This document shows positions 41,837 to 44,800 of a stretch of 64,000 nucleotides of DNA, piece by piece (positions within the stretch are counted from its first letter, which is position 1; every line of letters begins with the position of its first letter). Source of the DNA: Escherichia coli 042 (GTDB taxonomy: Bacteria > Pseudomonadota > Gammaproteobacteria > Enterobacterales > Enterobacteriaceae); the NCBI RefSeq assembly GCF_000027125.1, contig NC_017626.1. One strand, 5' to 3'. The notes beneath the pieces were generated by a model that worked only from the letters and a program-made list of their open reading frames with translations, was not told where the DNA came from and did no database searches. Position numbers and translations under genes: made by a program.

Positions 41837-43078
41837 TTAATGATGTGCCACGTCGGTCTGCGCAACAGTGCGATTTACACGCAGAGTGAAAATAATCAGC
41901 GAACCGATGACCGCCACCGCTGCCAGCGTCAGTAATCCCGCCGCATCGCTGGCAAACAACGTTTCTGCTTTCACGCGCAGGATCGGGGCAATAAACCCAC
42001 CCACTGCACCAAACAGGTTTACAAAACCAATCCCCGCCGCCAGCGCCGTACCGGAAAGCAGTTGTGTCGGCATCGTCCAGAACACCGGCTGCACGGCAAT
42101 AAACCCGATGGCTGCAACACACAGCGCTACGATCGCCAGTACTGGAGAAAGCAGCCCGGAGAGACCAATACCAATGCCTGCCGCCAGTAATGTCAGCGCC
42201 GCGACATTACGCCGTTCGCCGGTTTTATCGGAATAGCGCGGAATAAGCCAGGTCCCAAACAAGGCCGCGACCCACGGAATGGCGGTGACCACCGACGCCG
42301 TAAAGCCCACTTTTGTCCCCAACAATGCAGCAACCTGCGTCGGCAGGAAGAAAATTAATCCGTAAACCGCCACCTGAATGGTCAGGTAGATAATCGCCAG
42401 TTGCCAGACTCGCCCATTACGCAGCGCATCGCTCAGTCGAGAAGTCACTTTCTGTTGTTCTTCACTTGCCAGTTGGTTGATAAGCAACGTTTTTTCTTCT
42501 TTACTCAGAAAACGTGCCTGCTCCGGCGTGTCATCAAGCCAAAAGAATGTGAATACCCCAGCGCCGACTGCCAGCAATCCTTCAATCACAAACATCCAGA
42601 ACCAGCCGGGATGCCCCATAAATCCATGCATCTCCAGCAGCGCGCCGGAAAGCGGTGATCCCAGTGTTAACGCCAACGGTGCGCCCATATAGAACAGCCC
42701 CATAATGCTGGCGCGATTACGCTGCGGAAACCATTGCGAGGTGAGATAAATCATACCAGGGAAGAACCCGGCCTCCGCAGCACCAAGCAGAGTGCGAACG
42801 ATCAGAAATTTCGCTTCAGTATCGGCCCATGCCATGGCTGCCGAAAGAAATCCCCACAGCAGTGTTGTCGTACCAATCCAGGTTCTGGCCCCCAGTTTGC
42901 GCATCAAAAGATTCGCCGGAACACCCAGAAACGCATATACCACAAAGAAAATGCCTGCTCCCAGCGCATAAGCTTCATTACTCAGCCCGGTATCAATCTG
43001 GTAGGTTTGTTTGGCAAAACCGATATTCGAACGGTCGAGAAACGCCAGCACATACAGCGCCAACTTGACATCCTCCAC
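41837..43078 (-). CDS. rhmT: L-rhamnonate MFS transporter RhmT with 5' end abutting the IS element (native start and promoter apparently lost)
   Basis: 413-aa MFS ORF starting at GTG only 30 bp from the tnpB stop. Confidence 0.75.
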
Positions 43079-44800
43079 GCCCTGAAGAACGTGGATCCCT
43101 GCTACGTTCAGGCTGTCGCCTGAATCATTTCGGTGGGTTCCTGCTTCAACGAGCGGCCTGACTGCACCATCTCTCCACAGGCAAGAACGGCGTGCCCCGC
43201 CGCTAAAATGTTACGAGCGCCATTTACATCGGCGTTCGCTGTATATCCACATACCTGGCATCTGAATTGACTTTGTGACAGGCGATTTTCTTTCGCAGTA
43301 TGACCACAGCACGCGCAACGCTGGCTTGTGTACGCTGGCGGAACAGCAAGCAACTGACCGCCACTCCAGAGCTGCTTGTACTCAAGCTGGCGGCGCATTT
43401 CATACCAGCCCTGATCCAGTATCGAACGGTTTAAACCTGATTTTGCCCGGACATTGCGCCCCGGCTGGCTGAGCGTACCCGCTGCTGACTTTGACATGTT
43501 GCTGACCTTCAAATCCTCAATGACTATCATTGCGTGGTTTTTGCTGACGGTCGTTGTGACTTTGTGAAGGTAGTCCCTGCGGATATTTGCGATACGGGAA
43601 TGCAGTCGCTGTATTTTGCGTTTCTGCTTCTGCCAGTTGTTGCTGAATTTGACCCTGCGGCTTAACTGTCGCTGAAGTCTCGCCAGCTTCTTCTGGTTTT
43701 TCTGAAAACTGTTTACAGGCTCAAAGACTGTGCCATCTGACAGCGTGGCGAGTTTAGCCACGCCAGCATCCAGCCCGACCATTGATGCTGAAGGGTGAAC
43801 CGGAGTTGATACTTCACTTTCTGTCTGAATACTGATGTACCACTTACCGCAGGACTGGCTGACAGTGACATTTTTTACAACACCCGTGACCTGACGGCTG
43901 TTCCGGTAGCGCATCCAGCCCAGTTTCGGCAGAAAAATACGGCTGTTTTCCTGATCGAGCTTAACGCCCTGCGGATAGCGGAATGCATCATTCTGTCCCC
44001 GCTTTTTGAATCGGGGAAAAGCAGCCCGATTCTGGAAGAAGTTTTTGTAAGCCCGCTCAAGGTCTTTCAGTGACTGTTGCAATGGCTGTGAGGGCGAATC
44101 TTTAAGCCATTGCGTTTCAGTGGCGTTTTTCCACTCAACCAGCCAGGAAGCCATTTTCCCGTAAGGGATGTATTTATTACCGGCCTCATGATTCTCATTC
44201 TGAAGCGCCAGAGCGCGATTGAAAACGAAACGACATGCGCCTGCGAAGCGCCTCATTTCACACTCCTGTTGACCACCTGGTCTTAACTGGAATTTAAATG
44301 CCTGTAATCGTTTCACAGGTCAAATGATACTTTGGTCTATGAAAAAAGAAACCGATATCCGGCGTGGAAGGCATTGTGTTTTCCTGATGCATGTTCACCT
44401 GGTCTTTGTCACCAAATACCGACGCCAGATTTTTGACCATGACGCGACAGAAAAACTACGCACTTACTTTTCAAATGTATGTGCTGATTTTGAAGCTGAA
44501 CTGGTTGAAATGGATGGCGAACCAGATCACGTCCATTTGTTAATTAACTATCCTCCCAAACTGGCGATATCCAGTCTGGTAAACAGCCTCAAAGGCGTAT
44601 CGGGTAGGTTACTGCGACGAGATCGACCAGATATTGCAGTCAGGTATTACTACAAAGGCGTTTTGTGGAGTCCTGGCTATTTTGCCAGTAGCTGCGGAGG
44701 TGCGCCAATATCCGTCATCCGCCAATACATTGAACAACAGCAAACACCTGGTCAGGTGGAAAACCGCGCCTTATATCCCCGCCCTGAAGGACGGGGTTTT
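43070..44800. mobile_element. IS200/IS605-family insertion sequence (divergent tnpA and tnpB); boundaries approximate
   Basis: Y1 (HUH) transposase plus TnpB ORFs; 14-bp near-identical motif CGCCCTGAAG[A/G]ACG in direct orientation at both ends (43078-43091 and 44780-44793), each within a hairpin. Confidence 0.7.
43108..44316 (-). CDS. tnpB: TnpB (OrfB) RuvC-like transposon-associated nuclease
   Basis: 402 aa; C-terminal zinc finger CACCGH...CQVCG and RuvC-like motifs typical of IS605 OrfB. Confidence 0.88.

Follow-up and report, generated by a model that had tools for sequence, protein, structure and literature searches.

We analysed a 64,000-nucleotide stretch of the Escherichia coli 042 chromosome (NCBI RefSeq assembly GCF_000027125.1, contig NC_017626.1), referred to here as the window, which carries one copy of an insertion sequence (IS) of the IS200/IS605 family at positions 43065-44812 (1748 bp), between a truncated rhmT (yfaV) and yfaY. 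This element is named IS609 in the annotation of E. coli K-12. It lies on the minus strand, and its tnpB-sense (top) strand reads left end, tnpA (antisense), tnpB and right end. The tnpB gene, or insQ, occupies 43108-44316 (minus strand) and encodes an intact protein of 402 aa, and tnpA, which encodes a Y1 transposase, runs divergently from it at 44324-44749 (plus strand). The element shows the traits of the IS200/IS605 family, that is, a Y1 HUH TnpA alongside TnpB, hairpins at both ends and no target duplication. Our subject is the stretch formed by the 3′ end of tnpB and the right end, which is predicted to encode the scaffold of the guide RNA (omega RNA) used by TnpB.

The right boundary of the element was set from nine E. 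coli copies at different sites together with 38 diverged relatives. The tnpB-sense strand of all of these ends in GGAGGATGTCAA, at 43065 in the window, with nothing in common beyond that point; an earlier, sequence-only reading of this DNA had put the end of element and scaffold near 43075, which is 10 nt off. The left boundary was set by an empty-site test. When the yajI flanks of one copy were joined by a single TTAT, they gave intact yajI, with 100% identity over 244 nt to thousands of genomes. Thus, the element inserts 3′ of a native TTAT without duplicating it and has the span given above. This exact span is common to copies in at least eight other E. coli sites, and TTAT precedes the left end in every E. 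coli copy compared. In the window TTAT lies at 44813-44816 (minus strand), where it is the native target and left cleavage site and, by analogy with characterized systems, the predicted transposon-associated motif (TAM) of TnpB. In a survey of TnpB elements, TTAT is named among the common left cleavage sites of this family and TCAA among the right ones (PMC9956272). The left end itself (44770-44812, minus strand), which we delineated by reading the sequence and from a weak covariance-model match described below, contains the hairpin CCCCGUCC UUCA GGGCGGGG at 44796-44777, near-identical to that of the right end. The 1.75-kb unit also occurs in yajI, next to yeaQ, yedK and yfeD and at other sites, and the K-12 insQ/tnpA unit near ydcO is 97.9% identical to the window element. 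Of 5426 complete E. coli genomes, 4306, K-12 included, carry a near-full-length copy (at least 80% of a 2.1-kb query), and the IS609 group is widespread in Proteobacteria.

Public genomes with identical sequence annotate the 402-aa frame as an InsQ/TnpB-family RNA-guided endonuclease. The product contains the Pfam domains OrfB_IS605, TNB and HTH and matches the NCBIfam model guided_TnpB with 388 bits, scoring 310 bits with IS200_TnpB versus 198 bits with IS607_TnpB. The protein aligns over its full length to the TnpB of ISDra2 (E value of 7.8e-55), with the RuvC triad D183/E267/D363 opposite D191/E278/D361 of ISDra2 and both CxxC motifs of the zinc finger kept. Across 27 relatives with identities as low as 45%, the triad and the CxxC residues are strictly or almost strictly conserved. 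The full frame, the triad and both CxxC motifs are retained in each of the nine E. coli copies, and comparison of the window copy with the eight others gave dN/dS values of 0.17-0.67. The window TnpB is therefore intact and, judged by these residues, apparently catalytic. The sequence-only reading had correctly set the 3′ end of tnpB against the right end of an IS200/IS605 element, and it had named inactivated RuvC residues as an observation that would speak against a guide RNA; the triad proved to be intact.

A plain protein search returned only near-identical E. coli proteins, which were useless for covariation. Diverged loci were supplied by a representative search and by a scan of one genome per species, which yielded 80 loci with TnpB proteins 59-85% identical to that of the window. 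We aligned the last 151 nt of 38 elements (TnpB identity 59-100%). The tnpB stop codon lies at 43110-43108, leaving the last 43 nt of the element non-coding, and all 38 elements align through this non-coding part to a terminal GAGGATGTCAA, after which they have nothing in common; the terminal sequence is identical in 36 of the 38 and carries one T-to-C change in the other two. The scaffold delimited on this alignment comprises the last 140 nt of the element (43204-43065, minus strand). At its 5′ end, 97 nt of the scaffold coincide with the last 32 codons of tnpB, which encode a poorly conserved C-terminal tail. It closes with the essentially invariant GAGGAUGUCAA, and similarity between elements stops exactly there; hence the guide is expected to begin at the next base, 43064.

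RNAalifold predicted 29 base pairs from the alignment, 20 of them with compensatory changes. A fuller structure consisting of four stems, a two-pair junction helix and a pseudoknot (41 pairs) was then counted on the alignment. Standard pairs filled 93.3% of its pair cells, versus 39-43% when the partners were slid by 1-3 columns, changes on both sides were found in 27 of the 41 pairs, and the covariation score was 0.336, versus 0.05-0.08 in the slid controls. None of 500 shuffles attained the observed value on any measure. A covariance model, R1, constructed only from 26 non-enterobacterial relatives matched the window over the full length of the scaffold with 136.8 bits, an E value of 1.1e-35 and zero non-standard pairs, and it scored 130-140 bits on the other E. 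coli copies. The only other R1 match in the window was to the left end, at 22.3 bits, and was due to the hairpin. Minimum free energy folding of the last 151 nt gave a z score of −2.19, and the same calculation on 43330-43065 alone (266 nt) gave −0.94, which is not distinguishable from shuffles. Upstream of the scaffold, at 43205-43340, RNAalifold returned one 5-bp hairpin with wobble changes, none compensatory, and no other conserved structure. There is thus no support for 43205-43330 as scaffold, although the native transcript may well start further upstream than 43204, as in ISDra2, whose RNA is disordered and dispensable from −231 to −117 (PMC10097598).

The conserved structure begins with stem A (43188-43202, minus strand, as are all parts that follow), a 5-bp hairpin in which four of five pairs show compensatory changes and 98.9% of cells are paired. 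Its loop, GGGCA (43197-43193), is the proposed 5′ strand of the pseudoknot. Stem B (43140-43181) is an additional arm resembling the Rfam family RAGATH-18; it fits the kink-turn consensus, with GGA opposite GUU-GAA. Its base reads CCUGU-GGA-GAG ... CUC-GUU-GAA-GCAGG and its inner helix covaries; by general kink-turn rules, this sequence would adopt the textbook kink-turn arrangement. The kink-turn is not universal, as a subgroup of the relatives (L061, L086-L089 and others) lacks the 3-nt bulge. Stem B is followed by the conserved junction AACCCACCGAA, the CC of which pairs with GG at 43099-43098. Stem C (43104-43128), which consists of UUCAGGC GACA GCCUGAA and a lower stem, shows compensatory changes in 10 of 10 pairs. 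It differs in length among relatives and holds the tnpB stop UGA in its 3′ strand. Stem D, the right-end hairpin (43074-43095), has 9 bp and a UUCA tetraloop at 43086-43083, with compensatory changes in seven of nine pairs and 98% of cells paired; the window copy carries one C-to-U change that keeps a G-U pair. As top-strand DNA, stem D is presumed to be the binding hairpin of TnpA. The 3′ tail, GGAUGUCAA (43065-43073), contains UGUC (43070-43067), the proposed 3′ strand of the pseudoknot, and TCAA, the right cleavage site.

An omega RNA at the 3′ end of tnpB had also been proposed in the sequence-only reading. The kind of RNA holds up, as shown by the covarying scaffold that extends to the right-end boundary and gives way to unrelated flank; the anatomy does not. 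That reading had a scaffold at 43330-43075 built around a hairpin of CCTGAA and TTCAGG at 43081-43112 and a guide ending near 43060. Both hexamers exist (43081-43086 and 43107-43112), they are complementary, and pairing between them is possible in 84% of cells in the relatives. However, the hairpin shows zero compensatory changes, 409 of 500 column shuffles equal it, and it is mutually exclusive with covarying stems C (43128-43104) and D (43095-43074), so we rejected it as a conserved pairing. In addition, the upstream limit overshoots the supported scaffold by ∼125 nt, into sequence with no conserved structure, the element ends at 43065, and the guide is predicted to run from 43064 to about 43049. 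We therefore consider this arrangement scarcely credible.

The structure was compared with the omega RNA of ISDra2 from Deinococcus radiodurans (cryo-EM structures 8H1J, 8EXA and 8BF8), using the RNA layout published in PMC10097598. The ISDra2 RNA likewise lies at the tnpB 3′ end and stops at the right-end boundary, and its guide is supplied by flanking DNA. Stem A and its loop correspond to stem 1 and its loop in ISDra2. Counting back from the guide, the 3′ strand of ISDra2 stem 3a lies at −48 to −42 and that of stem C at −49 to −43, the 3′ strand of ISDra2 stem 2 lies at −35 to −32 and the junction GG of IS609 at −35/−34, and the tetraloop is UUUA at −20 to −17 in ISDra2 and UUCA at −22 to −19 in IS609 (both UUYA). 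In the ISDra2 pseudoknot, −5 to −3 pair with the stem 1 loop and a G stands opposite A(−2). The proposed IS609 pseudoknot has G20-C(−3), G/A21-U(−4) and C/U22-G(−5), with G19 opposite A(−2), as in ISDra2. In both elements the scaffold overlaps codons for a poorly conserved C-terminal tail of TnpB. The two RNAs differ in size: the IS609 scaffold is ∼140 nt, versus 116 nt in ISDra2, because of the additional kink-turn arm, stem B, between the 5′ hairpin and the equivalent of stem 2. They also differ in target (TTAT rather than TTGAT) and in the divergent orientation of tnpA and tnpB in IS609. The structure of the ISDra2 RNA has been solved, and that of the IS609 RNA is predicted from sequence comparison.

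The principal alternative to a guide RNA is that the conservation reflects DNA signals recognized by TnpA at the right end (hairpin, internal guide tetranucleotide and TCAA), with no functional RNA. The comparison that bears on this is with IS608 of Helicobacter pylori, whose TnpA right-end signals were reportedly described by Barabas et al. in 2008. Both elements have a subterminal hairpin, TCAA ∼10 nt past the foot of the hairpin and GAAT-like bases 5′ of it, and both insert 3′ of a tetranucleotide without duplication; they differ in target (TTAC in IS608, TTAT in IS609) and in gene order and orientation. Stem D, the GGAAT that precedes it and the terminal TCAA all fit an IS608-like TnpA, a near-identical hairpin is present at the left end, and the promoter scan described below was negative. 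However, covarying stems A, B and C reach ∼100 nt further, within the tnpB coding region, the left end matches R1 through its hairpin only (22 versus 137 bits), and the layout agrees position by position with the solved ISDra2 RNA. These data make a role confined to DNA improbable.

Several observations nevertheless weigh against assigning a guide RNA to this stretch. The requirement of TnpA for stem D and the tail as DNA gives part of the conservation a second cause. The pseudoknot shows no compensatory change, because its 3′ strand is invariant: the loop, GG(A/G)(C/U)A, faces the invariant UGUC with 97.9% of cells paired and varies on one side only (A-U/G-U and C-G/U-G), which is consistent with pairing and is not compensatory proof. 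A promoter scan of the minus strand detected no sigma-70-like promoter in the vicinity of the scaffold, which would leave tnpB mRNA as the source of the RNA. Rfam, searched at permissive thresholds with the window and 10 relatives, gave only sub-threshold matches to RAGATH-18, HgcC and sot0042, and none at the gathering score. Finally, tnpA is annotated as a pseudogene lacking its C-terminus, and if TnpA is dead, a role linked to excision would be without its trigger in this strain. Taking these points together with the covariation and the correspondence to ISDra2, we consider it highly likely that 43204-43065 (minus strand) is the guide-RNA scaffold of the IS609 TnpB and that it represents a working or recently working guide-RNA gene.

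The sub-threshold Rfam matches were confined to families tied to TnpB RNAs (PMC11061315, PMC4615843). RAGATH-18 (RF03064), whose gathering score is 44.9 bits, matched stem B with 29.5 bits and an E value of 0.011, and relatives scored up to 34.9 bits. This family forms the core of the IS607 TnpB guide RNA and has been reported only with IS607 TnpB and outside coding sequence (PMC11061315). The base of stem B is close to the RAGATH-18 consensus, CCUGUGGAG...CUCGUUGAAGCAGGAA, kink-turn included, as represented by the right-end element RNA (reRNA) of the IS607 element ISFba1 (Ren et al. 2024, PMC11061315). Like the ISFba1 reRNA, the IS609 RNA has a 5′ hairpin with a pseudoknot loop, a central long arm and two 3′ stem-loops. 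Unlike RAGATH-18, its arm is 27 nt shorter in the upper part; unlike IS607, IS609 encodes a Y1 (HUH) TnpA and not a serine recombinase; and unlike the IS607 reRNA, which is separate from tnpB, the IS609 RNA overlaps the tnpB coding sequence. We did not assign stem B to RAGATH-18, given the score and the IS200-type Y1 transposase next to it. A RAGATH-18-like arm was also seen in relatives L024 and L050. We tentatively suggest, from these sequence resemblances, that the omega RNA of the IS609 group may be a composite of an ISDra2-type core and an inserted arm homologous to RAGATH-18, a proposal that we hold at somewhat less than even confidence.

HgcC (RF00062) matched stems C and D plus the tail. 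The score was 20.1 bits for the window, and 8 of the 10 relatives scored 21.5-34.8 bits; with a gathering score of 50, membership was rejected. HgcC and the haloarchaeal sense overlapping transcript RNAs (sotRNAs) are older names for RNAs at tnpB 3′ ends that carry a hairpin with a UUCA loop (Gomes-Filho et al. 2015, PMC4615843). As in HgcC and the sotRNAs of IS1341-type tnpB genes, the IS609 RNA is sense to the tnpB 3′ end and contains the right-end UUCA hairpin; unlike IS609, those families are archaeal, and they were described before the guide-RNA function was known. The same paper mentions sense transcripts over tnpB 3′ ends in RNA-seq of E. coli K-12 (PMC4615843).

The predicted guide, GUUGGCGCUGUAUGUG (43049-43064, minus strand), starts with the first flank base after the invariant end. 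Its length of 16 nt was taken from ISDra2; a 20-nt guide, with GCUGG, would extend to 43045. The guide corresponds to codons 21-26 of native rhmT. The sequence-only reading was thus right that the guide would come from rhmT coding sequence and wrong in placing it in the first codons, as codons 1-20 are deleted here. In strain WB61, which has an intact yfaV-rhmD-yfaX-yfaY locus, TTAT precedes the guide sequence inside rhmT, where codons 19-26 read CCG TTT ATG TTG GCG CTG TAT GTG. Thus, the guide matches an unoccupied rhmT allele adjacent to the expected motif. The guide sequence occurs once in the window, where the next best match has three mismatches, and the guide differs between insertion sites.

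Compared with the intact locus, 2353 bp are missing from the window: rhmT codons 1-20, rhmD, yfaX (rhmR) and the two final codons of yfaY. The 3′ end of that gene holds a further native TTAT, at which the left junction is located. In the intact locus (L010:2654-5006), each end of the deletion falls exactly 3′ of a native TTAT, and both motifs are on one strand. The deletion would be explained by recombination between two IS609 insertions in the same orientation; alternatively, it may have arisen by a TnpA-mediated exchange of the left end with a second TTAT. Intermediates of such a deletion, with IS609 inserted at just one of the two TTAT sites (in rhmT or in yfaY), were sought, and none ranked above background in the 5426 genomes. 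Despite its truncation, rhmT (yfaV) continues to be annotated as a complete gene, since its frame is opened by a TTG or GTG (43111 or 43078, minus strand) within the right end of the IS. The Prokaryotic Genome Annotation Pipeline (PGAP) starts yfaV at 43111, such that IS-encoded residues take the place of the first 20 of the transporter. As judged from the sequence, transcription of rhmT has no obvious source other than read-through from tnpB.

This arrangement bears on whether TnpB might be a domesticated guided repressor of the TldR type, or the RNA a leader for truncated rhmT. The start of the yfaV frame inside the right end and its apparent dependence on tnpB read-through are in keeping with such roles. 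However, the RuvC triad is intact, and the element is a standard multicopy IS with many insertion sites and a different guide at each, which makes either role very unlikely.

The tnpA frame contains a complete Y1 core, with HUH followed by the tyrosine in RQYIEQQ, and matches the NCBIfam model transpos_IS200 (NF033573) with 146.9 bits over profile positions 2-126 of 126. It has no stop within the element: the frame stays open past the left-end hairpin and through sequence antisense to yfaY as far as 44929, for a product of 201 aa. In each of the nine E. coli copies, PGAP labels tnpA as a pseudogene (five contain frameshifts or internal stops), and tnpB is intact. The divergent starts are only 7 bp apart (tnpB GTG at 44316, tnpA ATG at 44324); therefore, each promoter must lie inside the coding sequence of the other gene.

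The state of tnpA raises the prospect that the scaffold is genuine and the copy in the window an inert relic, with tnpA defective, the flanks reshaped by the 2.35-kb deletion, and the RNA and TnpB idle. This is compatible with a guide-RNA scaffold and accords with the pseudogene call, with the absence of the wild-type target from the window region and with the occurrence of the arrangement with identical sequence in many strains, which seems to point to stable inheritance rather than mobility. Arguing the other way, the TnpA core fills the whole family profile, HUH and tyrosine included, tnpB is intact with dN/dS below 1, the scaffold has no unpaired position in its R1 alignment, and excision would again create TTAT next to a guide match. 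On balance, we regard an inert copy as unlikely, though it deserves more weight than the other alternatives considered here.

If the stretch is a guide-RNA gene, the following model can be proposed, in which transcription, 5′ processing, guide length, use of TTAT as TAM and cleavage are modeled on ISDra2 and related systems. Transcription in the tnpB sense would pass the right end into rhmT. The RNA would fold into the four stems, with the stem A loop forming the pseudoknot with UGUC just before the guide, and TnpB would bind the scaffold and retain the adjacent flank (43064-43049) as guide. The complex would then cut DNA bearing TTAT followed by GTTGGCGCTGTATGTG. Such a target could be supplied by the joint left after TnpA excision, TTAT-GTTGGCG... 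(CCATGACTTTAT-GTTGGCG), or by the unoccupied rhmT allele of other strains. Cutting would favor restoration or retention of the element through recombination, an outcome documented for other IS200/IS605 elements. By known TnpB logic, the resident copy would be spared because TCAA replaces TTAT before the guide-matching DNA.

Additional observations were made on related elements and on a neighboring gene. Plasmid NZ_CP149849.1 (L091:401-704) and ∼10 similar plasmids of 62-68 kb carry a 300-bp IS609 derivative that consists of a right end with a partly deleted scaffold (69 bits with R1), the 3′ part of tnpA and a left end; it retains flanking TTAT and has an MFS transporter gene on one side and pepT on the other. 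This tnpB-less mini-element could be mobilized, or could supply a guide, in trans. Contigs assigned to Streptomyces mutabilis (L015, 2057 bp) and Candidatus Erwinia dacicola (L011, 1752 bp) contain barely more than an IS609-like element, with proteins 81-85% identical to that of E. coli; the Streptomyces copy is probably contamination or misassembly and not a real actinobacterial copy. Elsewhere in the window, rpnE (39807-40976, plus strand; annotated as an ISNCY-family transposase, 319 aa) is directly followed by a 65-aa frame that repeats the C-terminal part of rpnE, which suggests a partial tandem duplication.

Guide RNAs of TnpB are well known; one is expected for any intact IS200/IS605 tnpB, and that of IS609 is predictable from annotation. 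In our literature search, no paper described the RNA of IS609, the structure of this RNA or the TAM; one paper names an IS609 TnpB among purified proteins. The present analysis contributes a covariance model for the IS609 guide RNA, together with its exact coordinates and a secondary structure tested on an alignment. Of modest interest is the RAGATH-18-like kink-turn arm in an element with a Y1 transposase. If the arm is truly homologous, IS605 and IS607 guide RNAs share a module and the stated exclusivity of RAGATH-18 fails; in that case the arm might contact the protein or serve in folding, which would be relevant to engineered TnpB editors. The element is common in E. coli, including K-12, which makes detection of the RNA, InsQ binding and TTAT-dependent cutting tractable in a standard host. 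By the same token, E. coli strains in which foreign TnpB systems are tested carry their own intact TnpB and scaffold, which calls for caution.

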